From assembly GCF_024502345.1 (NCBI RefSeq), contig NZ_JALDNN010000001.1: a stretch of 64,000 nucleotides of DNA; one strand, given 5' to 3'. Below, one piece after another: positions 1 through 20,627 of this stretch; position 1 is the stretch's first letter, and each line of letters starts with the position of its first letter. The notes under the pieces were generated by a model. The model was not told where the DNA came from. It saw only the letters and a list, made by a program, of their open reading frames with translations, and ran no database searches. This stretch comes from Escherichia coli (GTDB taxonomy: Bacteria; Pseudomonadota; Gammaproteobacteria; Enterobacterales; Enterobacteriaceae). A program made the position numbers and the translations under genes.

Positions 1-764
1 GGATGCGGCAAAATACCCATCGGGATGCCATAAATCATTTCGAGGGTTTCGCCGCGCATAATTTCCGCAGGCGTTCCCTGAGCAATCATTTCACCACCGC
101 GCAGGGCGACCAGATAATCACAGTAGCGTGCCGCCATATTGATATCGTGCAGCACGGCAATGACCGTCAGGCCACGTTCCTGACTTAAACGGTGCACCAG
201 CGCCAGCACATCAACCTGGTGGGCGATATCCAGCGCCGAAGTCGGTTCGTCGAGCAACAGACAACGGCTATCCTGCGCCACCAGCATGGCGATCCACGCC
301 CGCTGACGTTCGCCGCCAGAGAGACTATCGACCAGCCGATGCGCCAGCGGTTTTAAGCCAACCAGCGAGATAGCTTCCTCGACCTTTTCGCGATCTGCCG
401 CACCAAAGCGCCCCAGCGCGCCATGCCACGGGTAACGACCAATCGCCACCAGTTCACGCACGGTCATCCCTTCTGCCGGAGGAAGCTGCTGCGGCAAATA
501 AGCCACTTTGCGGGCAAACGCTTTGCTGCTCCAGCTTTCCAGCGGCTGGGCATCAAGAAGAATCTCCCCTTCTGACGGAGGCTGATGACGGCCAAGCATT
601 TTGAGCAGAGTGGATTTACCAGAACCGTTGTGACCAATCAGACCGGTCACTTTCCCGGTAGGAAAGGTTAACGACAGCGGATGCAAAAGCGTGCGCCCGG
701 GCACACGAAAGGAGATATTACGCAGTGCAAAAGTGGTATCGGAATGATTCGTGTATTCCTGCAT
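1..764 (-). CDS. fhuC: Ferrichrome ABC transporter ATPase FhuC (3' end cut by window edge)
   Basis: Minus-strand translation from ATG at 762-764 gives Walker A (GHNGSGKST), ABC signature (LSGGERQRA) and Walker B (LLLDEPTSALD); position next to fhuA matches K-12 synteny. Confidence 0.9.
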   Translation of the reverse strand, partial: MQEYTNHSDTTFALRNISFRVPGRTLLHPLSLTFPTGKVTGLIGHNGSGKSTLLKMLGRHQPPSEGEILLDAQPLESWSSKAFARKVAYLPQQLPPAEGMTVRELVAIGRYPWHGALGRFGAADREKVEEAISLVGLKPLAHRLVDSLSGGERQRAWIAMLVAQDSRCLLLDEPTSALDIAHQVDVLALVHRLSQERGLTVIAVLHDINMAARYCDYLVALRGGEMIAQGTPAEIMRGETLEMIYGIPMGILPH

Positions 765-814
765 AACAGCCAACTTGTGAAATGGGCACGGAAATCCGTG
801 CCCCAAAAGAGAAA

Positions 815-3004
815 TTAGAAACGGAAGGTTGCGGTTGCAACGACCTGACGTTCTGCGCCCCAGAAGCAGCCATAAGTCTGGAAGCAACTGGCAACATACT
901 CACGATCGAGCAAATTGTTGACGTTCACAGCAAGGCTGGATCCCGCCATACCAAAGCGTGCCAGATCATATTTTACAACAGCATCCATTACAGCTGCGCT
1001 ACCCACTTTAAAAGTGTTTGCCGGATCACCATAGCTGGAACCAATAAAACGACCACCTGTTCCCAATGTTAAACCAGAAAGCGGCCCTTCATTGAAGGTA
1101 TAATCCCCCCAGAGAGATGCCATATGCTCCGGTACTTGTTCTGGAGTTTTACCTTTGAGATTGGTGTCTTTGGTGTATTCCGCATCGGTGTAGGTATAAG
1201 AAGCCGTCAAGTTAATATTGGCATTTAACGCCGCTTTTGCTTCAAGTTCCACACCACGAGCGCGAATCTCACCTGCTGGGACTTGCGCTAATGGGTTTGT
1301 TGGGTCTGCTGTCAGGTTATTTGTTTTCGTCAATTGATAGACTGCGCCCGTAACAACGACCGGCATATCATTCGGAACATATTTTACGCCAGCTTCATAC
1401 TGTTCACCTTTCGATGGCTTATAGGAAATGCGCGGGTTGCTCCACAGATCGAAAGCACTCGGTTCAAAGGACTGGCTATAGCTAAAGTAAGGTGAAATAC
1501 CATTATCGAATAAGTAATTTACACCACCGCGCCAGGTGAACTGATGATCATTGCGCTCAATATAACCTTCAGTCGGCGTATAAGAGTTTTCACGAACAGT
1601 GGTCGCTTGCTTAGACCAATCGTAGCGTCCCCCCAGAGTGAATACCCATTTATTCCATTCCGCCTGATCCTGAACATAAATACCTGTTTGTTTGCTTTCA
1701 TTCATCTGGTATGGCTCTGCGCTACCAAATGCAAAGTATTCAGGGTGATATTTGTTATAAAGATCGATGGATGGTGCGGATCCAAAGCTGGCATTGATAT
1801 CATTACGCATCCGCATGAAGTCTACCCCTGTCAGCAAAGTATGCTCGACGTCACCTGTAGCAAACTTACTTTCAAGTTGGGTATCAACGCTAAAGTTTTG
1901 TAGACGCTCATTATCCACCACTGTCCCGCGGTTTAGGGTATGACCATCACCAGCAATCCCTGTGCCATAAACACTTTTCTGTGAGGTTTTCATTTCACTG
2001 AAACGCAGATTCTGACGCACGGTGAAGGTGTCATTAAAACCATGTTCAAAACTATATCCCACCATTTTCTGGTTACGGGAGTATGTATTATTCGATGCAC
2101 CTTCATTGAAGTCAGTCGGTAGACGCTTACCATTAGGCAATGGCTCAACGGTCCCCTCTTTCGGCAACCAACCGTAATAACCCGTTTCTGGTTCATTCTG
2201 GAAATAGGACAGGAAAGTAAAATTGGTTTTGTCGTCTGGACGCCATGAGAATGATGGAGCAATGGTATAACGCTGAGATTCAGAGTTTTTCTGCTGTTCG
2301 TTTGTTGAGCGAGCGAGGCCCGTCAAACGGTAAGAGAACTCACCGTTATCATCCAGTGCATCACTGAAATCGAATCCGGTCTGAAACAGATTATCCGTCC
2401 CCATTTTAAACTGAATTTCTTTCAGGGGTTCAGTGGTCGGACGTTTACTCACCATAGAAATAATCCCACCAGGATTACTTTTTCCATAGAGAACAGACGT
2501 CGGCCCACGCATCAGTTCAACCCTCTCGAGCATGTAAGGATCAATCACAGCATCGTTATAAAAGTTGCCCTGAAGTTTTAGTCCATCAAGGTAATTATTT
2601 TGATTCAGACCAACAGATGAGAAACCACGAATGATAACAAAATCATATGTATTAGAAGCACCACGACTGCTAACCGTAACGCCAGGTGTATAACCTAATG
2701 CTTCTTTTACAGACTGAAATTGATGCATCTGCATCTCTTCATTTGTCACAACCGAAATAGACTGCGGCGTTTTTTCAATTGGTGTATCCGTTTTAGTCGC
2801 AGTAGCAGAGTGCTTCGCCGCAATAGTTGCAGCAGGCCCCCATGCGCTTTCTTGCGGCGCAGGTGCAGCGGTAACGGTGATAGTGTCTTCTTTCGGTTCA
2901 ACCGCTGCCTGTGCATAAACAGACATGCCGCTAACCGCTGTGGCTACTACAACTGCGATTTTACGCAGTGAGTGTTTTGGCTGAGCAGTTTTGGAACGCG
3001 CCAT
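815..3004 (-). CDS. fhuA: TonB-dependent ferrichrome outer membrane receptor FhuA
   Basis: 729-aa ORF with signal peptide (MARSKTAQPKHSLRKIAVVVATAVSGMSVYAQA), TonB-dependent receptor plug and barrel, C-terminal aromatic ending ATFRF; K-12 synteny. Confidence 0.9.
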   Translation of the reverse strand: MARSKTAQPKHSLRKIAVVVATAVSGMSVYAQAAVEPKEDTITVTAAPAPQESAWGPAATIAAKHSATATKTDTPIEKTPQSISVVTNEEMQMHQFQSVKEALGYTPGVTVSSRGASNTYDFVIIRGFSSVGLNQNNYLDGLKLQGNFYNDAVIDPYMLERVELMRGPTSVLYGKSNPGGIISMVSKRPTTEPLKEIQFKMGTDNLFQTGFDFSDALDDNGEFSYRLTGLARSTNEQQKNSESQRYTIAPSFSWRPDDKTNFTFLSYFQNEPETGYYGWLPKEGTVEPLPNGKRLPTDFNEGASNNTYSRNQKMVGYSFEHGFNDTFTVRQNLRFSEMKTSQKSVYGTGIAGDGHTLNRGTVVDNERLQNFSVDTQLESKFATGDVEHTLLTGVDFMRMRNDINASFGSAPSIDLYNKYHPEYFAFGSAEPYQMNESKQTGIYVQDQAEWNKWVFTLGGRYDWSKQATTVRENSYTPTEGYIERNDHQFTWRGGVNYLFDNGISPYFSYSQSFEPSAFDLWSNPRISYKPSKGEQYEAGVKYVPNDMPVVVTGAVYQLTKTNNLTADPTNPLAQVPAGEIRARGVELEAKAALNANINLTASYTYTDAEYTKDTNLKGKTPEQVPEHMASLWGDYTFNEGPLSGLTLGTGGRFIGSSYGDPANTFKVGSAAVMDAVVKYDLARFGMAGSSLAVNVNNLLDREYVASCFQTYGCFWGAERQVVATATFRF

Positions 3005-3042
3005 TGGTATATCTCTGATGTAAAGTGAATGATAACGTAAAC

Positions 3043-3076
3043 GAGAATGATTATTATAAAGATAAGATAATATTCG
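3043..3076 (-). promoter_or_regulatory. Putative Fur box(es) in the fhuA promoter region
   Basis: AT-rich GAGAATGATTATTATAAAGATAAGATAATATTC upstream of fhuA resembles the Fur consensus GATAATGATAATCATTATC (partial match, judged by eye). Confidence 0.4.
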
Positions 3077-3181
3077 AAACGCTGGCGGGTTCGCAAGCGG
3101 TACGCAATCTGAGCGTTCCTGAAGGGTTAATAAACAACCAGATGAAAAGAAAGGGTTAATATCTTAGATGGGATGTTATTT

Positions 3182-3208
3182 TACCGGATGGCAACTCGCC
3201 ATCCGGTA
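3182..3208 (-). terminator. Stem-loop downstream of mrcB (likely intrinsic terminator)
   Basis: Inverted repeat TACCGGATGGC ... GCCATCCGGTA just after the mrcB stop. Confidence 0.5.
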
Positions 3209-3223
3209 TTTCACGCTTAGATG

Positions 3224-12759: not shown

Positions 12760-13238
12760 CAGTTGCGTATATTGCCATAGGCAGCAATCTGGCCTCTCCG
12801 CTGGAGCAGGTCAATGCTGCCCTGAAAGCATTAGGCGATATCCCTGAAAGCCACATTCTTACCGTTTCTTCGTTTTACCGCACCCCACCGCTGGGGCCGC
12901 AAGATCAACCCGATTACTTAAACGCAGCCGTGGCGCTGGAAACAACACTTGCGCCTGAAGAATTACTTAATCACACACAGCAAATAGAGTTGCAGCAAGG
13001 TCGCGTTCGTAAAGCAGAACGCTGGGGACCGCGCATACTCGATCTTGATATCATGTTGTTTGGTAATGAAACCATTAATACCGAACGACTCACCGTCCCG
13101 CATTACGATATGAAGAATCGCGGCTTTATGCTGTGGCCGCTGTTTGAGATTGCCCCGGAACTCGTGTTTCCTGATGGGGAGACATTACGTGAAATACTCA
13201 CTTCGCTAGCAGTACTACAACCTGCCATCTGGTATTAG
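12756..13238 (+). CDS. folK: 6-hydroxymethyl-7,8-dihydropterin pyrophosphokinase
   Basis: HPPK-like sequence; ATG overlaps the pcnB stop (ATGA), as in K-12. Confidence 0.9.
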
Positions 13239-13519
13239 CTGTATTATTTTATTTTCTTATCTTACTCCTCACTTCCCCTCTTACAGATTAAATATACTTA
13301 ATTTACATTTTAGTTTTTTTTAATTAATTCATGAAATAGCACTTCATGCAAATAGATTAGGCATTTTTTGTTTAAAAAACCTAGAATAACAACAATTCAA
13401 TACACCACGTAAATATATTCACACAAGTGATACCTCTCCCCCTATTACATCCTTCCCCGACTTTAAGTAATATCCGCTCGCAATATTAATTTCGTATAAT
13501 TTTTGTAAGGATGCATGTA

Positions 13520-14116
13520 ATGAAAAAAGCACTTCTCGCAGCCGCTTTAGTAATGGCTTCTGGTTCCGCCTTGGCTGTAGATGGTGGTCATATCGACTTT
13601 AACGGTATGGTACAGTCCGGTACCTGTAAAGTGGGTGTGGTAGATACCGGTATGCACAGCGTTACCACTGATGGCGTGGTTACCCTGGATACTGCGAATG
13701 TTACTGATACTTTTACTGAAGTAAGTGCAACTGCTGTTGGTTTACTGCCGAAAGAGTTCATGATTTCTGTTGAGTGTGATCCAGGTGCTCCGAAGAATGC
13801 TGAGTTGACTATGGGTTCTGCAAGCTACGCGAACACCAGCGGTACCCTGAATAACAATATGAACATCACTGTTAACGGTATTGCACCGGCTCAGAACGTG
13901 AACATTGCAGTTCATAACATGAAAAACAAAGCTGGCGCTGCTGAAATTAAGCAGGTCCATATGAACAACTCTTCTGAAGTTCAGGAACTGACATTAGACG
14001 CAGAAGGTAAAGGTCAGTACGTGTTTAACGCATCTTACGTTAAAGCACCGAACAGCCCGGCTGTTACTGCTGGTCATGTAACCACTAACGCACTGTACAC
14101 CATTGCTTATAAATAA
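13520..14116 (+). CDS. yadN: Fimbrial major subunit (chaperone-usher pilin)
   Basis: Signal peptide, conserved Cys pair, C-terminal pilin strand (TIAYK); first gene of the yad operon. Confidence 0.8.
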   Translation: MKKALLAAALVMASGSALAVDGGHIDFNGMVQSGTCKVGVVDTGMHSVTTDGVVTLDTANVTDTFTEVSATAVGLLPKEFMISVECDPGAPKNAELTMGSASYANTSGTLNNNMNITVNGIAPAQNVNIAVHNMKNKAGAAEIKQVHMNNSSEVQELTLDAEGKGQYVFNASYVKAPNSPAVTAGHVTTNALYTIAYK

Positions 14117-14196
14117 TTAATGGTGTGTTGAGCATAAGGTTTGCCGCCAGGCAGACCTTATTTTCGCTAATTTAATCTTTCTACAGACAGCAAGGA

Positions 14197-14928
14197 GTGC
14201 TTATGTTTCCCTTGGTTAAAAAAACGGTTAGTGCATTATTTGTAAGTACTCTGTTAGCCAGTGCGCCTGCATTCGCTGACATTATTATTTCCGGAACTCG
14301 TATCATTTATAACGCTGATAAAAAAGATGTTAACGTTCGTCTGGAAAATAAAGGGAATCGCCCCTTACTGATTCAGAACTGGTTGGATACTGGCGACGAC
14401 AATGCCGATCCCAGCCAGATCAAAGTGCCATTTACCTCTACGCCGCCTGTTTCACGCGTTGAGCCAAAACGCGGTCAAACCGTAAAAGTGATGTACACCG
14501 GTGCAACAGCCCTGCCTAAAGACCGGGAAAGTGTCTACTGGTTTAACGTGCTGGAAGTGCCGCCTAAGCCGAAAGATGCTGAGTCTGACAAAAACTTATT
14601 ACAATTGGCTTTCCGCACACGCATCAAACTCTTTTATCGCCCGAGCGGTTTACAGGGAGAACCGGCTGAAGCACCGGCGAAAATCACCTGGAAATTAAAC
14701 AACGCTCAGTTACAGGCAAATAACCCAACGCCATATTACGTGTCCTTTAATGAGGTCAAGCTGGAAAGTGGCGGCAAAACCTACAACGTCAATTCCAGCA
14801 TGGTCGCGCCGTTCAGCCAGGCAAGCTTTCGCGTAACCGGTCTACCAGGAAGCGTTTCATCCGGGAAAGTGATCTTTAAAGCGATCAACGACTTTGGCGG
14901 CAACATCGATGGTTCCGCAACATTGTAA
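14197..14928 (+). CDS. yadV: Periplasmic fimbrial chaperone (PapD-like)
   Basis: PapD-family features: signal peptide and conserved segments (RIIYNAD, VYWFNVLEVPP). Confidence 0.85.
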   Translation: MLMFPLVKKTVSALFVSTLLASAPAFADIIISGTRIIYNADKKDVNVRLENKGNRPLLIQNWLDTGDDNADPSQIKVPFTSTPPVSRVEPKRGQTVKVMYTGATALPKDRESVYWFNVLEVPPKPKDAESDKNLLQLAFRTRIKLFYRPSGLQGEPAEAPAKITWKLNNAQLQANNPTPYYVSFNEVKLESGGKTYNVNSSMVAPFSQASFRVTGLPGSVSSGKVIFKAINDFGGNIDGSATL

Positions 14929-14969
14929 AAAATAAACGGATTCTTTTTAACATCGCCAGGAATGCAACC

Positions 14970-17570
14970 TTGTACCAGTTTACTCATCAAATAAGCCGTA
15001 TCCCGAAAAAAACGCTACTTGCGGCCTGTTGTGCCCTGTTTTATAGCAGCAACGGTGCTGCGGCAGACACGGTGGAATATGACAGTTCCTTCTTAATGGG
15101 AACTGGCGCATCAACGATTGATGTTAAACGTTATGCTCAAGGCAACCCGACACCCCCGGGCCTCTATAATGTCCGCGTGTTTGTAAACGGTCAGGCGACG
15201 TCCAGCTTAGAAATTCCGTTTGTGGATATTGGCGAAGCCAGCGCAGCGGCCTGTATTACCCACAAAAACCTGGCGCAACTCCACATAAAGCAACCTGAAC
15301 AGCCTGTCACTTTACTCGCCAGAGAAGGTGAAGAAGAGGATTGTCTGGATTTGGCAAAGTCATACGAAAAGGCGGATGTGCGCTTTGACGGCAGTGACCA
15401 GTTTCTCGATCTGACTATTCCTCAGGCCTATGTTCTGAAAAACTACGGTGGTTATGTCGACCCCTCACTGTGGGAGTCAGGGATTAACGCTGCCACACTG
15501 GCATATACCCTGAACGCCTATCATACAAGTTCAAATAACGACAATAGTGACAGCGCCTATGGCGCATTTAACTCAGGTATCAATTTAGGAGCCTGGCACT
15601 TCCGTGCGCGCGGTAACTATAACTGGACAACAGATAACGGCAGCGATTTCGATTTCCAGGATCGTTACTTACAGCGTGACATTCCGGCAATCCGTTCACA
15701 GATAATTATGGGTGATGCCTATACCACCGGTGAAACATTTGACTCTGTCAACGTCCGCGGCGTTCGCCTGTACAGCGATAGCCGTATGCTGCCTTCGGCG
15801 CTGGCCAGTTACGCTCCGACCATCCGCGGTGTAGCAAACTCCAACGCCAAAGTCACCGTGACGCAAAGCGGTTATAAAATCTATGAAACCACCGTACCAC
15901 CCGGTGAATTTGTTATAGACGACATTAGCCCCTCCGGCTTTGGTAGCGAACTGGTCGTGACCATTGAAGAAGCGGATGGTTCCAAACGCACCTTTACGCA
16001 ACCCTTCTCGTCGGTTGTACAAATGCAACGTCCTGGTGTGGGCCGTTGGGATTTCAGCGCGGGTAAAGTCATTGATGACAGTCTGCGATCCGAACCCAAT
16101 ATGGGACAAGCCTCTTATTACTATGGTCTGAATAACCTCTTCACGGGTTATACCGGTATTCAGTTCACCGATAATAACTATCTTGCCGGGCTGTTAGGTG
16201 TGGGTATCAACACCAGCATCGGTGCCTTTGCGGTAGACGTTACCCATTCCCGTGCTGAAATTCCGGATGATAAAACCTACCAGGGGCAAAGTTATCGCGT
16301 GACCTGGAACAAATTATTCCAGGATACCGGGACATCATTTAACCTCGCGGCGTACCGCTATTCCACCCAAGATTACCTGGGCCTGCATGATGCGTTAGTC
16401 CTCATTGACGACGCCAAACATTTGTCTGCCGATGAAGACAAAAACACCATGCAGACGTACTCACGTATGAAAAACCAGTTTACCGTCAGCATCAACCAGC
16501 CGCTGAAAACGACTTACGAAGATTACGGTTCACTGTTTATTTCTGGTAGCTGGACGGATTACTGGGCGGCGAACAATAGCCGCACTGAATATAATGTTGG
16601 TTACAGTAAAAGCGTTTCGTGGGGCAGTTTCAGCGTCAACCTGCAACGTAGCTGGAATGAAGACGGCGAGAAAGATGACGCGATGTACGTCAGCGTTAGC
16701 GTACCTATTGAGAATATTTTAGGTGGCAAACGTAAGTCTTCTGGTTTCCGCAATTTAAATACTCAGCTCAATACCGATTTCGATGGTTCACATCAGTTGA
16801 ATGTTAACAGTTCCGGTAACACTGAAAACAATCTGGTGAACTACAGTGTCAACGCAGGTTATAGCCTCGATAAAAACTCCGGCGATTTAGCCTCTGTTGG
16901 TGGTTATCTCAACTATGAATCAGGGTTAGGCGGTATTTCCGCTTCGGCCTCGGCCACTTCGGATAACAGCCAACAGTACTCCATCTCCACCGATGGAGGC
17001 TTTGTATTACACAGTGGTGGTTTAACGTTCACTAACAACAGTTTCAGCAGTAACGACACGCTGGTGTTAATCAACGCCCCAGGTGCTAAAGGCGCACGAA
17101 TCAATAACAGTAATAACGAAATCGATCGCTGGGGATATGCCGTGACGTCCTCTGTCAGCCCCTACCGTGAAAACCGGGTAGGTCTGAACATTGAAACACT
17201 GGAAAACGATGTTGAACTGAAAAGTACCAGCGCCACCACCGTACCACGTAGCGGCTCCGTTGTTTTGACCCGGTTCGAAACTGACGAGGGGCGTTCTGTC
17301 GTGCTGAATATTACTGCCGCCAATGGCAAATCTATTCCGTTTGCTGCGGAGGTTTACCAGGATGACGTGATGATCGGCAGCATGGGCCAGGGTGGTCAGG
17401 CATTTGTGCGCGGTATTAACGACAGCGGGGAATTAATCGTGCGTTGGTATGAAAACAACCAAACCATTGACTGTAAGTTGCACTACCAGTTCCCGGCCCA
17501 GCCACAAACGCTGGGAAGTACCAACACCTTATTACTTAATAATCTTACCTGTCAGGTAGCAAATCACTAA
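14970..17570 (+). CDS. htrE: Fimbrial outer membrane usher
   Basis: 866-aa usher-like protein with signal peptide; sits between chaperone and minor pilins. Confidence 0.85.
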   Translation: MYQFTHQISRIPKKTLLAACCALFYSSNGAAADTVEYDSSFLMGTGASTIDVKRYAQGNPTPPGLYNVRVFVNGQATSSLEIPFVDIGEASAAACITHKNLAQLHIKQPEQPVTLLAREGEEEDCLDLAKSYEKADVRFDGSDQFLDLTIPQAYVLKNYGGYVDPSLWESGINAATLAYTLNAYHTSSNNDNSDSAYGAFNSGINLGAWHFRARGNYNWTTDNGSDFDFQDRYLQRDIPAIRSQIIMGDAYTTGETFDSVNVRGVRLYSDSRMLPSALASYAPTIRGVANSNAKVTVTQSGYKIYETTVPPGEFVIDDISPSGFGSELVVTIEEADGSKRTFTQPFSSVVQMQRPGVGRWDFSAGKVIDDSLRSEPNMGQASYYYGLNNLFTGYTGIQFTDNNYLAGLLGVGINTSIGAFAVDVTHSRAEIPDDKTYQGQSYRVTWNKLFQDTGTSFNLAAYRYSTQDYLGLHDALVLIDDAKHLSADEDKNTMQTYSRMKNQFTVSINQPLKTTYEDYGSLFISGSWTDYWAANNSRTEYNVGYSKSVSWGSFSVNLQRSWNEDGEKDDAMYVSVSVPIENILGGKRKSSGFRNLNTQLNTDFDGSHQLNVNSSGNTENNLVNYSVNAGYSLDKNSGDLASVGGYLNYESGLGGISASASATSDNSQQYSISTDGGFVLHSGGLTFTNNSFSSNDTLVLINAPGAKGARINNSNNEIDRWGYAVTSSVSPYRENRVGLNIETLENDVELKSTSATTVPRSGSVVLTRFETDEGRSVVLNITAANGKSIPFAAEVYQDDVMIGSMGQGGQAFVRGINDSGELIVRWYENNQTIDCKLHYQFPAQPQTLGSTNTLLLNNLTCQVANH

Positions 17571-17571
17571 T

Positions 17572-18132
17572 ATGGAAAATTCTATGAAAAGGATACTACT
17601 AACATCCGCGTTAATAGGCCTGGGTTTACCGGCGGTTGGCTCTGCAACAGATCTTAATGTCGATTTTACGGCCACCGTATTAGCCACCACCTGCACGATA
17701 ACTATCGTACAAGATGGTGGCCCAGTAGTGACGGGTAGTAACGGTGAATATAGCCTGACAATTCCCGATGTTGGCCTGGATAAAGTTATAACTGGAGATG
17801 TTGCAGCTCAAGCCAACTTTAAATTACTGGCTTCCGATTGCAGCAATGGTTACTCAAAGATTTTTACCACACTTACAGGTGCATCTGTTTCAGGTAAGTT
17901 GATTGTCAATGAAGCAAGCTCTGGCGCTACTGGTGTGGGTATGGGGATTAAGCGTAGAGATACCGCAGACTCAACTTTCTTTACACCCAATAATACTGAC
18001 AAATTTGAATGGACCACCGATGAGAAAGCTAACGGTGTGCCTCTAACCGTAGCACTGCGCGAAACAACGGCGGGAGCAGGACGCACCGGTGCGTTTCAGG
18101 CAAAAGCCACCTTTAACTTCACCTACGAATAA
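17572..18132 (+). CDS. yadM: Fimbrial minor subunit
   Basis: Pilin-like: signal peptide, Cys pair, C-terminal beta strand (FNFTYE). Confidence 0.75.
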   Translation: MENSMKRILLTSALIGLGLPAVGSATDLNVDFTATVLATTCTITIVQDGGPVVTGSNGEYSLTIPDVGLDKVITGDVAAQANFKLLASDCSNGYSKIFTTLTGASVSGKLIVNEASSGATGVGMGIKRRDTADSTFFTPNNTDKFEWTTDEKANGVPLTVALRETTAGAGRTGAFQAKATFNFTYE

Positions 18133-18146
18133 CAGGGACAGCCACC

Positions 18147-18758
18147 ATGAAATTAAAAGTCATCGCTACACTGATTGCCACTGTTGCCGTGGGTGCCAGC
18201 GTTAGCAACAATCTCGCTTATGCGGGTACGACATCCGCCTCTTTAACCGTAAACAGTAACCTGACTATGGGTACCTGTAGTGCGAAGATACTGGATACCA
18301 GTGATACCGTGACCGATACCGTTGCCTTTAACAATGTTTATATTTCTGAACTGGCAGCCAAAAGCAAGGTACAACCATTTAAAATCCGTTTCAGCGATTG
18401 CGCCGGTCTTCCAGGAAAAAGTGCTCAACTCGTATTGGCACCCAAAGGTATCGGTTGCGCTGGCGGCATGTCTAACACTGCCGGCTTTGCAAATAAACTT
18501 AACTCCACCACCGAAGGTGGTTCAAGCGGAGCAGCTGTCGAAGTATGGACGACTACGACCCCCGGGGGAAGTGGCAGTAAGCAATTCAGTTGCATTCAGC
18601 GAAACGTCGTCAATGTCGATCTTTCTAATGCCAGCACAACACAGCCTTATGATTTCGATTTAAGCGCGCGGATGATTCTCGCTGAAGGGAGAACGGTTAA
18701 TGATGCATTACCGGGTAGTTTCCTCTCTCCTACGACTTTCACAATCACTTATCAGTAA
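18147..18758 (+). CDS. yadL: Fimbrial minor subunit
   Basis: Pilin-like: signal peptide, C-terminal TFTITYQ. Confidence 0.75.
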   Translation: MKLKVIATLIATVAVGASVSNNLAYAGTTSASLTVNSNLTMGTCSAKILDTSDTVTDTVAFNNVYISELAAKSKVQPFKIRFSDCAGLPGKSAQLVLAPKGIGCAGGMSNTAGFANKLNSTTEGGSSGAAVEVWTTTTPGGSGSKQFSCIQRNVVNVDLSNASTTQPYDFDLSARMILAEGRTVNDALPGSFLSPTTFTITYQ

Positions 18759-18778
18759 TAGCGGATAAGGATATTAGA

Positions 18779-19369
18779 ATGCTATGCAGGCATCATAAAT
18801 TTGTACGCTTTTTGGGGCTGGTAACAGCCCTCGTTACGCCTTTTGCCTATGCTGGCCAGGATGTGAATCTCACCGCGCAGATTGTGGCCAGTACCTGTCA
18901 GGTTGAAGTCAGTAATAATGGCGTTGTCGATCTCGGCACAGTGACGCTGGACTATTTTGCTGACAATGTGACCCCGACAACGGATTATGCGGGTGGCAAA
19001 ACGTTTAATGTTAATGTGGTCTCTTGCGATAACATTCAAACGACACAGTCGCAAATGAAATTAGATTTTCAGCCGCAGGCGGGATCGCTTGCGCAGGTGA
19101 ATAATCAAATTTTTAGTAATGAATATGAACAGCAGGCTACCGGGGCGAAAAACGTCGGCATTGTGATATTTTCGGCCCAGCCGAATCAGCAGACATTTAA
19201 CGTGCGAGGAACGGATGGTTCCTCAACAGCAATTTATTCGGTCGCGCCTGGCAACGCTGCTCCCTCAACCTGGACCTTTTATTCCCGTATGCAACGGGTG
19301 AATAATGCCCTTCCTCCTGAATCGGGAATGGTGAGAAGCCAGGTTATTGTTAATGTATCTTATGAATAA
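18779..19369 (+). CDS. yadK: Fimbrial minor subunit
   Basis: Pilin-like: signal peptide, C-terminal VIVNVSYE. Confidence 0.75.
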   Translation: MLCRHHKFVRFLGLVTALVTPFAYAGQDVNLTAQIVASTCQVEVSNNGVVDLGTVTLDYFADNVTPTTDYAGGKTFNVNVVSCDNIQTTQSQMKLDFQPQAGSLAQVNNQIFSNEYEQQATGAKNVGIVIFSAQPNQQTFNVRGTDGSSTAIYSVAPGNAAPSTWTFYSRMQRVNNALPPESGMVRSQVIVNVSYE

Positions 19370-19380
19370 TAAGGATAATT

Positions 19381-20493
19381 ATGCAAAGGAAAGGCAATAA
19401 ACTGTTAATTCAGTTATGCAGTGCGATACTGCTATTTTTTACCACATCCTGGTATGCATTGGCGACTGAATGTTATATAGAGAGCAATGCTGCAGGGGCT
19501 TATGATATTGTTATAAACCCAACTCCCTTCAGTATACAGTCAGCGATGGTCACAGTCCCGGAGGAAATATCTTTCGCGGCCTCGGATGTTCATATTGACC
19601 TTCGAGGGGATAAGATTGGCTGTAAATCCTTAGGTAGTAACACAAGCGCGGTACATTTTCTTAATACTGCTGATGCCAGTAACATATCTACCTACACTGA
19701 CAGTCACGGTAATGGTTTATTGAAAACAACCGTTACGGGTATTGTTTATTCAGTAGAATTACAATGTAGAAATTGTGGAGCCGCGGAGGATCTTAGTTTG
19801 ATGCTTCCAGCACAAAGCGGTGGAGATAATCATACAAGCAACTCTGATACAAAGTGGGCCTATGAGTATAGTGACGATAGCTGGTATTTACGATTTCGTT
19901 TTTTCTGGACCCCGGAATATAAACCCCAAAATGGGGTTTCAGAAGGATTTGCGATACCAGGTAAAATAGCCTCCTGGTATATAGGCAATGAGAATCAACC
20001 ATGGATAAATTTTTTCGTTGATACAAGCTCCCTGCATTTTTACGTGGAGGAACCCACCTGTCAAACAGTTGCCCTGGCACAAGATCAGGGTAATGTCAGC
20101 GGCAACCAGGTAACGCTTGGGAACAACTATGTTTCGGAAGTGAAAAATGGGCTTACGCGGGAAATTCCTTTTGCCATCCGCGCTGAATACTGTTATGCCA
20201 GTAAGATTACGGTTAAGTTGAAAGCGGCAAATAAGCCCAGCGACGCCACTCTGGTAGGTAAAACAACGGGCTCTGCTTCAGGCGTGGCTGTAAAAGTGCA
20301 TTCAACTTACGAAGACAGCAAAGTATTGTTAAAAGCAGATGGTAGCAACACGGTTGACTACAACTTCGCAATCTGGTCAAACAACCTGCTGAATTTGCCC
20401 TTTACGGCACAGTTGGTACCGGATGGCAGTGGTAATGCAGTCGGTGTTGGAACATTTTCAGGAAACGCGACCTTCTCCTTTACCTACGAATAA
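19381..20493 (+). CDS. yadC: Fimbrial tip adhesin (two-domain adhesin-pilin)
   Basis: 370 aa with signal peptide and C-terminal pilin domain ending FSFTYE; last gene of the yad operon. Confidence 0.75.
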   Translation: MQRKGNKLLIQLCSAILLFFTTSWYALATECYIESNAAGAYDIVINPTPFSIQSAMVTVPEEISFAASDVHIDLRGDKIGCKSLGSNTSAVHFLNTADASNISTYTDSHGNGLLKTTVTGIVYSVELQCRNCGAAEDLSLMLPAQSGGDNHTSNSDTKWAYEYSDDSWYLRFRFFWTPEYKPQNGVSEGFAIPGKIASWYIGNENQPWINFFVDTSSLHFYVEEPTCQTVALAQDQGNVSGNQVTLGNNYVSEVKNGLTREIPFAIRAEYCYASKITVKLKAANKPSDATLVGKTTGSASGVAVKVHSTYEDSKVLLKADGSNTVDYNFAIWSNNLLNLPFTAQLVPDGSGNAVGVGTFSGNATFSFTYE

Positions 20494-20627
20494 GTAAAAC
20501 GTCATTCCCTCCTCATCGCACCAGAGTTCTGCTCTGGTGCGAACGTTTTCCCCCACGAAAAGCCATTGCCCCCTTGTTTTCGGCTGTTAGAATGCGATCA
20601 ATCTGACTTTAGCCATCAGGATACGTT

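Follow-up and report, generated by a model that had tools for sequence, protein, structure and literature searches.

The 64,000-nt Escherichia coli stretch analyzed here (the window) carries an intact fhuA gene that we assign to allele class E3. In all likelihood, codons 64 to 709 of this gene stem from an old allelic lineage set in ordinary surroundings, and the product would retain ferrichrome import while presenting a changed outer face. FhuA is the entry route for T1-, T5-, and phi80-like phages, colicin M, microcins J25 and Y (MccJ25 and MccY), albomycin, and rifamycin conjugates.

The window open reading frame (ORF) starts with ATG and, in the ORF list with translations, encodes a 729-aa product; K-12 FhuA comprises 747 aa, and the length difference noted in the first-pass annotation is thus real. 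The protein matched E. coli FhuA structures with an E value of 0 (PDB phmmer), contained the Pfam domains Plug and TonB_dep_Rec_b-barrel, and scored 1,409 bits over its full length against the NCBIfam FhuA equivalog NF007465 (cutoff, 803 bits). It is identical to RefSeq WP_000124381.1 of strain AL.H8. The gene order mrcB-fhuA-fhuCDB is present around it, and fhuA occurs as a single copy per genome at the native locus. A pseudogene or paralogue was ruled out by the intact ORF, the mainly synonymous changes within the class, the single copy per genome, and the native locus. An AlphaFold model of low confidence (mean pLDDT, 61; plug, <50) predicted a barrel of 22 strands and served to delimit strands and loops, the borders of the latter being approximate. 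The motif DTITV is the TonB box, with the role established for TonB-dependent transporters. No differences from K-12 were found from positions -263 to +189 of fhuA, a gene that is under Fur control in K-12. The fhuC product is 99.6% identical to that of K-12 (pS, 0.045). The features of the region are listed in Table 1.

TABLE 1 Coordinates of fhuA-related features in the window
Feature	Position	Strand	Basis or comparison
fhuC, 5' part, clipped at window edge, K-12-like	1..764	-	Translation MQEYTNHSDTTF...
fhuA CDS, intact; ferrichrome outer-membrane transporter, assigned to allele class E3	815..3004	-	ORF, phmmer, Pfam, NCBIfam
3' conserved segment, gene nt 2128-2190 including stop	815..877	-	Identical to K-12
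Divergent intragenic block, gene nt 190-2127, codons 64-709	878..2815	-	Sliding identity, breakpoints
Loop L8 DPTNPLAQVPAGE, tip replaced	1268..1306	-	Alignment, residue mapping
Loop L7 SAFDLWSNPRISYKP, 29% identical to K-12, 2 aa longer	1415..1459	-	Alignment
Loop L6 insertion TPTEGY, 5 aa more than K-12	1562..1579	-	Alignments
Loop L5 region, 38% identical to K-12 in loop proper	1697..1789	-	Alignment
Peptide quoted in first-pass annotation, VYGTGIAGDGHTLNRGTVVDNERLQNF, residues 345-371	1892-1972	-	Coordinates from translation
Loop L4, shortened (GIAGD/GHTLNRG), 17 aa fewer than K-12	1925..1960	-	Alignments, residue mapping
Loop L3 with Tyr244/Trp246 (mature numbering), 97% identical to K-12	2072..2197	-	Alignment, residue mapping
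5' conserved segment, gene nt 1-189 (signal peptide, N terminus, TonB box)	2816..3004	-	0 differences from K-12
TonB box DTITV, residues 40-44	2873..2887	-	Same sequence in K-12
Promoter-like site TTGCGA-18-TATTAT	3096..3067	-	Within the intergenic region
mrcB-fhuA intergenic region, fhuA promoter, Fur-box-like AT-rich repeats	3005..3223	-	Identical to K-12

Comparison with K-12 divides the gene sharply. Residues 1 to 63 and the final 21 residues match K-12 exactly, at the DNA level as well, and the genes flanking fhuA are 95 to 100% identical to their K-12 counterparts. The intervening 1.94-kb block shares approximately 70% nucleotide and 74.5% amino acid identity with K-12 (pS, 0.78; pN, 0.17). 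With pS above 0.75, a Jukes-Cantor dS cannot be calculated for the block; raw pS values and fourfold-site differences are given instead. The step from no difference over 189 nt to a difference of approximately 30% is far beyond chance, and the block edges at nt 190 and 2127 were found in all six of the E3 E. coli carriers examined, which have differing backgrounds. The GC content at third codon positions (GC3) is approximately 41% in the block versus 58 to 70% in the flanks, which is anomalous and foreign-looking.

The overall amino acid identity between the window protein and K-12 FhuA, including its PDB sequence, was 77%, far from near-identity, and all indels lie in L4 to L8, in agreement with the loop divergence that had been suspected from the sequence. 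The first-pass annotation also correctly described a divergent fhuA allele, with its strongest differences in L4 to L8; however, the difference extends through the plug and the strands, i.e., over the whole block. Likewise, its view that the plug and the barrel termini are conserved holds for residues 1 to 63 and the final 21 residues but not for the plug (82% identity) or for the strands (77% overall). The L4 stretch PANAYSKQCAALAPADK of K-12 is absent from the window protein, a deletion that takes out the Cys318-Cys329 disulfide and Tyr325 of K-12; relative to CFT073, L4 has 23 fewer residues. L5 lacks 8 aa (2 + 6) present in K-12. L8 is 29% identical to that of K-12, and its tip is changed from EGSFFSVEG to TNPLAQVPA, with Phe557/Phe558 replaced by Leu/Ala. 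L3, L10, and L11 are 91 to 97% identical to K-12, and the L11 disulfide is kept.

These features match a class described by Wang et al. in 2018 (bioRxiv 10.1101/320069), who grouped cluster E3 of E. coli with cluster S2 of Salmonella. In E3/S2 proteins, the insertions that E1, E2, and S1 carry in L4 (Indel 3) and L5 (Indel 4) are missing, and L6 (Indel 5) and L7 (Indel 6) have insertions seen in no other cluster (10.1101/320069). Our assignment of the window allele to E3/S2 follows from the described features of that cluster, and the class is already known, having been described in 2018 and annotated in RefSeq. The block was found in 562 of 5,426 complete E. coli genomes (10.4%; ≥95% identity to the block), and the carriers include lineages labeled ST38 and avian-pathogenic O78. 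An apparent class with 80 to 90% identity (77 genomes) disappeared with a block-only query and was an artifact caused by the conserved ends, which gave short matches. Within E. coli, E3 alleles show a diversity of 1.0 to 2.8%, of which at least 84% is at third codon positions. The window and AL.H8 do not differ from positions -156 to +2345; on the upstream (mrcB) side they differ by approximately 1.9% (26 of ~1,330 nt), and downstream there is one difference. This identity across fhuA, together with the divergence on the mrcB side, points to intraspecies transfer.

Outside E. coli, a close likeness is to the 729-aa FhuA of Salmonella enterica (records labeled Typhimurium, Infantis, Eboko, and Bullbay), which has the same length as the window protein, 95% amino acid identity (P0001; versus 74 to 77% for K-12 and CFT073), and loops that are 93% conserved. 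The two proteins are sisters in a neighbor-joining tree, and the phylogeny of FhuA conflicts with that of the species. The FhuA labeled Typhimurium shares a 90% cluster with the window protein, the S. Typhimurium link consisting of one labeled database record. The block protein resembles K-12 FhuA less than it resembles the FhuA proteins of Salmonella, Citrobacter, Lelliottia, Klebsiella aerogenes, and Cronobacter, and the window loop sequences recur across many genera. In contrast, the Salmonella gene has its own species-specific N terminus, a DNA identity to the window of 80.6%, and a GC3 of 56% versus 41%. In a scan of 100,044 GTDB species-representative genomes, no match above 81% nucleotide identity was found outside E. 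coli among the 80 loci listed, which did not include the S. enterica representative; the Salmonella DNA was obtained separately from contigs encoding the protein. A comparably low GC3 was seen in no sampled fhuA. Between the window and the Salmonella S2 allele, pN was 0.027, pS was 0.81, and the fourfold-site difference was 0.67, whereas pS for the flanking genes of E. coli and Salmonella was 0.54 to 0.63. E3 is near synonymous saturation relative to every sampled relative, yet its protein and loops are 93 to 95% conserved in the Salmonella comparison. The synonymous differences between E1 and S1 equal those of the flanking genes. The edges of the two-class block are nearly alike in E. coli (E1/E3) and Salmonella (S1/S2), at nt 174-190 to 2100-2127, and the gene ends around the blocks are species specific in both.

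These data suggest that codons 64 to 709 would belong by descent to an old allelic lineage separate from that of K-12 (E1), with the gene ends, promoter, mrcB, and fhuCDB representing ordinary E. coli sequence. The block would behave like a cassette at the normal locus, spread among E. coli lineages by homologous recombination via the conserved ends and flanks, and the gene would be expressed as usual from its normal promoter. Wang et al. preferred recent exchange on the basis of protein trees (10.1101/320069), and a transfer of the inner portion of fhuA out of Salmonella or some other sequenced enterobacterial genus, at a time when the species already existed, would fit the contrast between the Salmonella and K-12 protein identities, the incongruent trees, the foreign-looking GC3, and the sharp block edges. 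However, the synonymous and fourfold-site differences from Salmonella S2 are at least as large as the divergence of the flanking genes, species representatives beyond E. coli reach at most 81% nucleotide identity, the low GC3 is unmatched among sampled fhuA genes, and the E3 alleles have already diverged from one another within E. coli, mostly at synonymous sites. Recent import from sampled donors is therefore disfavored, and we regard such an event as unlikely. An old lineage is preferred because of the synonymous saturation relative to Salmonella, the GC3 of 41%, and the lack of a species representative above 81%; nevertheless, so low a GC3 fits poorly with a very long residence in E. coli. 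This lineage is under purifying selection, as indicated by the mostly third-position variation within the class and the low pN relative to S2. Remodeling in situ of the loops of a K-12-like fhuA through positive selection by phages or colicins, the model implicit in the first-pass annotation, would explain why L4 to L8 hold the largest differences and every indel, and positive selection on fhuA has been reported, according to a passage of 10.1101/320069 citing it. The synonymous saturation nevertheless covers the entire block, plug and strands included, the edges are abrupt with no differences beyond them, and the same loops are conserved in Salmonella and many other genera. This scenario is exceedingly improbable, and the synonymous divergence and the block edges rule out a K-12-like gene with loops that have drifted in response to phages. 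Phage and bacteriocin selection on the loops is itself plausible, in line with the literature. Going beyond the old lineage, the fhuA dimorphism could conceivably be an ancient balanced receptor polymorphism and not the result of recent inter-genus exchange, although we lean somewhat against so broad a claim. Inheritance of E1 and S1 since the common ancestor is consistent with the data because their synonymous divergence equals that of the flanking genes. If the polymorphism is ancient, the surface classes would represent stable "receptor serotypes" over tens of millions of years, plausibly maintained by phages and microcins (J25/Y) that kill the classes reciprocally, and the E3 DNA would either have an unsampled low-GC donor as its source or have evolved while isolated from recombination.

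A further question is whether the protein mainly has a changed phage and bacteriocin surface or a changed substrate (i.e., another hydroxamate siderophore). The ferrichrome contacts considered here lie in the plug apices, L3, beta7, beta9, and L11 and, except for Y244 and W246, are presumed contacts from the structures of 1998. Y244 and W246 are ferrichrome-binding sites (PMC10373560). Eight of the 10 presumed pocket residues (R81, G99, Y116, Y244, W246, Y313, F391, and F693) are kept; the two changes relative to K-12, Q100L and Y315T, are common to all members of the class and, together with the differences in the loops lining the vestibule, could indicate a different substrate. Against this stand the conserved pocket residues, L3, and L11, a score far above the FhuA equivalog cutoff, the location of the gene in an fhuACDB operon with K-12-like fhuCDB, and the competition between ferrichrome and MccY at S. 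Typhimurium FhuA, the MccY receptor (PMC9769762). A changed specificity is therefore very unlikely. TonB-dependent import of ferrichrome and albomycin is most likely retained, given the conservation of the TonB box, most pocket residues, L3, L10, and L11.

The altered loops include those through which K-12 FhuA is recognized. T5 pb5, T1, phi80, and colicin M use L4 to L8 of K-12 FhuA (PMC9586334, PMC10373560); pb5 makes most of its hydrogen bonds with EL4, EL5, and EL8 (PMC9586334), T5, phi80, and T1 depend on L8 and L4 (PMC10373560), and L8 is the main T5 determinant (PMC9586334, PMC10373560). The K-12-type docking surfaces of L4, L5, L7, and L8 are absent from the window protein, whose outer face would instead present a truncated L4, a short L5, a long L6 and L7, and an L8 without its aromatic tip. 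Because of the changes in L4, L5, L7, and L8, poor or no binding is expected for T5 pb5, T1, phi80, colicin M, and MccJ25. MccJ25 is not taken up by S. Typhimurium FhuA (PMC3652737), and E. coli isolates with a "divergent fhuA" are MccJ25 resistant (PMC10926693). By analogy, agents adapted to the S. Typhimurium-type FhuA, such as phage ES18 and MccY, may use the window FhuA.

A different FhuA surface in approximately 10% of E. coli bears on the prediction of phage host ranges, on phage and microcin therapy, and on the design of siderophore-drug conjugates. As a discovery the allele adds little, being in RefSeq and belonging to a class known since 2018; its value is as a clean example of a nutrient receptor that alters its exposed face while keeping its transport core.

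With K-12 FhuA (cluster E1; PDB 1BY3, 2FCP, and 8A8C), the window allele has the locus, promoter, signal peptide, TonB box, and fold in common. No structural difference from E3/S2 was found: both have a much-shortened L4, a shortened L5, an elongated L6 and L7, a sister relationship to a Salmonella cluster, a conserved fhuACDB locus, and an allele phylogeny incongruent with that of the strains (10.1101/320069). Our DNA-level results, with saturated synonymous sites between the E. coli and Salmonella versions, a GC3 of 41%, and matching block edges in the two species, disagree with the recent-exchange reading of Wang et al. The mosaics of OmpC, OmpF, LamB, and OmpA (bioRxiv 10.1101/2021.09.21.461324) resemble fhuA in their variation at loops and phage sites, conserved locus, and intragenic recombination. 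However, these porin and OmpA genes are patchworks of short hypervariable regions, whereas fhuA contains one contiguous 1.94-kb block.

Gene order around the window fhuA is that of K-12 (hrpB-mrcB-fhuA-fhuCDB), with mrcB and hrpB upstream. The product matches the solved E. coli FhuA structures (E = 0), contains the Pfam Plug and TonB-dependent barrel domains, scores 1409 bits against the NCBI FhuA equivalog model (cut-off, 803), and is present in RefSeq as an exact match (WP_000124381.1). The ORF call confirmed the length in the first-pass annotation (729 aa, versus 747 aa for K-12 FhuA), and the peptide quoted there corresponds to residues 345 to 371. Overall amino acid identity to K-12 FhuA is 77% in the alignment, and a loop-by-loop alignment bore out the claim that the allele is divergent in its surface loops (see the table). 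The strand and loop borders are approximate, as they were taken from an AlphaFold model (mean pLDDT, 61) in which the barrel strands were resolved and the plug was poor. The Cys318-Cys329 disulfide and Tyr325 were lost with the L4 deletion, and Phe557 and Phe558 of L8 are replaced by Leu and Ala, respectively; the L11 disulfide is retained, and the TonB box does not differ from the K-12 sequence.

Features of the window and structural elements of its FhuA compared with K-12 FhuA
Feature	Window position	Strand	Identity to K-12	Length or context
fhuA ORF, 729 aa, ATG start	815-3004	-		ORF call
fhuC start	1-764	-		downstream of fhuA, same strand
FhuA signal peptide			100%	unchanged
FhuA plug			82%	unchanged
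FhuA strands			77%	no change of note
FhuA L3			97%	unchanged
FhuA L4			only short remnant	17 aa missing
FhuA L5			38%	8 aa shorter
FhuA L6			29%	5 aa longer
FhuA L7			29%	2 aa longer
FhuA L8			29%	unchanged
FhuA L9			62%	unchanged
FhuA L10			93%	unchanged
FhuA L11			91%	unchanged
Hcp (T6SS), Pyocin_S, and colicin/pyocin DNase fusion, 593 aa	51025..52806	-		pdhR-aroP segment
Three colicin/pyocin immunity ORFs	50738..51022, 50040..50330, 49342..49632			after DNase fusion
MFS_2 sugar transporter	54916..56322	+		aroP-ampE insert
GH43 glycosidase	56322..57272	+		aroP-ampE insert

In a sliding comparison with the K-12 locus, the neighboring genes are 95 to 100% identical, and one stretch within fhuA drops to 38 to 86% identity per 100 nt. 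Base by base, the window sequence equals that of K-12 between position -263 and the ATG, in gene nt 1 to 189, and in the last 63 nt, and dense differences extend across gene nt 190 to 2127 (window 878-2815). Within this block, amino acid identity to K-12 is 74.5%, with a pN of 0.17 and a saturated pS of 0.78; the pS of the flanking genes is 0.05 to 0.10. Given these edges and the block-wide pS, the plug and strands are therefore also part of the foreign block. The conservation of the plug and barrel termini proposed in the annotation thus holds only for residues 1 to 63 and the final 21 residues, whereas the rest of the plug and the strands lie in the divergent block. The loops are indeed the most different parts, but we rejected local loop evolution as the cause: the whole internal block has been replaced by another old allelic lineage.

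The window protein belongs to a 90%-identity cluster represented by a 729-aa Salmonella enterica FhuA (P0001; 95% identity), with members labeled Typhimurium, Infantis, Eboko, and Bullbay. This cluster also lists 265-aa FhuC proteins, which look like a clustering artifact, perhaps from fused or overlapping gene calls. The next relatives are from Citrobacter sp. Res13 (93%), Superficieibacter (92%), and Lelliottia nimipressuralis (91%), followed by Kluyvera, Scandinavium, Klebsiella aerogenes, Cronobacter, and Kosakonia (82 to 89%); K-12-type FhuA was absent from the best 120 matches. A neighbor-joining tree of the block placed the window allele as sister to the Salmonella protein inside a multigenus clade, and K-12 and CFT073 in a separate clade with Escherichia whittamii, Phytobacter, Leclercia, and several Citrobacter. 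Within the family at large, the K-12 type has no better claim to being "standard" than the window type.

Nearly all complete E. coli genomes carry fhuA (5,424 of 5,426), and 562 (10.4%) contain the block at an identity of at least 95% (at least 99% in 16), always chromosomal and in a single copy. Among the carriers are a STEC isolate and records labeled ST38, APEC O78:H4, and turkey strain 789. The two edges of divergence from K-12 are the same in all six carriers examined. Block divergence within the class is 1.0 to 2.8%, comparable with the flanks of the same strains (1.7 to 3.0%), and third codon positions account for at least 84% of the block differences. The window and strain AL.H8 (window 659-3160) are identical from -156 to +2345, i.e., through 155 nt past the fhuA stop; on the mrcB side, 26 of ~1,330 positions differ (~1.9%), and on the downstream side, one. 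This pattern suggests a recent recombination tract of ~2.5 kb that carried the whole fhuA by homologous exchange. The fhuA of CFT073 is a third class (752 aa; 86% nucleotide identity to K-12 in the block). In NZ_CP103673.1 (918893-922029), a window-type fhuA is broken by an IS3-family transposase, a natural inactivation of the allele. In another carrier, SCPM-O-B-8794, homology in the mrcB-fhuA intergenic region ends 137 bp upstream of fhuA (L007 1-3360), beyond which lies low-GC (43%) DNA with fimbrial usher-like (712 aa) and adhesin-like (346 aa) ORFs.

The E. coli and Salmonella versions of the window-type fhuA share 80.6% DNA identity, and the window allele differs from the Salmonella version with a pN of 0.027, a pS of 0.81, and 0.67 of fourfold-degenerate sites, which equals or exceeds what separates the flanking genes of the two species (pS, 0.54 to 0.63; fourfold, 0.45 to 0.49). 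Among the matches listed from 100,044 species representatives (80 returned loci, the Salmonella enterica representative not being one of them), none outside E. coli exceeded 81% nucleotide identity to the block. Within Salmonella, too, what separates the two classes is an intragenic block (nt 174 to 2100) with near-identical flanks. Saturation with Salmonella, the lack of a close representative, and the Salmonella block therefore make a recent transfer of this allele from a sampled genus unlikely. The K-12 class and its Salmonella counterpart (P0138, serovar Agona; 92.7% amino acid identity) diverge like the flanks (pS, 0.62; fourfold, 0.50), and the loops are 93% identical between the window class and Salmonella. 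On these comparisons, the FhuA classes look old and under strong purifying selection, loops included.

Base composition resists a simple "ancient resident" account: GC3 is 41% in the window allele, 53.5% in K-12 fhuA, 56% in the Salmonella allele, 48 to 67% in fhuA of 29 other taxa, and 58 to 70% in the flanking genes. Across the collected loci (L001-L094), fhuA GC is below that of its own flanking 3 kb in almost all of 30 taxa/alleles, typically by 3 to 10 points, and the window class is the extreme of this series. The block may derive from an unsampled relative of lower GC and have resided in E. coli long enough to gather 1 to 3% diversity, or it may have evolved under recombinational isolation.

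Expression of fhuA is under Fur control, and the window allele, whose promoter and Fur-box region matches K-12 exactly, is expected to be regulated like the K-12 gene. Eight of 10 ferrichrome-contact positions are kept (R81, G99, Y116, Y244, W246, Y313, F391, and F693), and two show class-specific changes (Q100L and Y315T). Eight of these positions (R81, G99, Q100, Y116, Y313, Y315, F391, and F693) we take to be contacts. The other two, Y244 and W246, have been named as such (PMC10373560). Deleting L3 or L11 abolishes ferrichrome use in K-12 (PMC10373560), and ferrichrome is reported to be a competitor of MccY for the FhuA of S. Typhimurium. Because the TonB box, pocket, L3, and L11 are conserved and fhuCDB is K-12-like, and in light of the competition report, the window FhuA is probably transport competent. 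Its ligand spectrum is predicted to be changed, since the docking surfaces used by T5, T1, phi80, colicin M, and MccJ25 are replaced. T5 pb5 makes 23 of 27 hydrogen bonds with EL4, EL5, and EL8, and no deletion has a larger effect than that of EL8 (PMC9586334); L4 is needed by T1, and L8 by phi80 and several new phages (PMC10373560); and phi80 and colicin M are blocked when Llp causes EL7 and EL8 to move. T5 fails to adsorb to S. Typhimurium (bioRxiv 10.1101/2022.09.22.509047), whose FhuA does not import MccJ25 (PMC3652737).

Elsewhere in the window, the yad chaperone-usher fimbrial operon (yadN to yadC; 13195-20615) is another highly divergent surface-structure locus, with 66 to 72% identity or no match to K-12. 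A ~4.8-kb segment between pdhR and aroP (48384-53173) is not in K-12; its last two immunity ORFs look like duplicated orphan immunity genes, because their Pfam scores are identical. A ~2.5-kb insert relative to K-12 lies between aroP and ampE (54790-57303).

Wang et al. (bioRxiv 10.1101/320069, 2018) described four FhuA clusters in Escherichia (E1 to E4) and two in Salmonella (S1 and S2), with fhuA trees that conflict with the fhuB and species trees, and explained the protein tree by exchange that postdated speciation; their group later extended the pattern to other porins. MccJ25 resistance has been linked to divergent fhuA in natural E. coli (PMC10926693). By loop alignment and tree, the window allele shows every feature described in 2018 for cluster E3/S2. 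The feature is real, and the observation thus correctly rediscovers an allele class that was already known.
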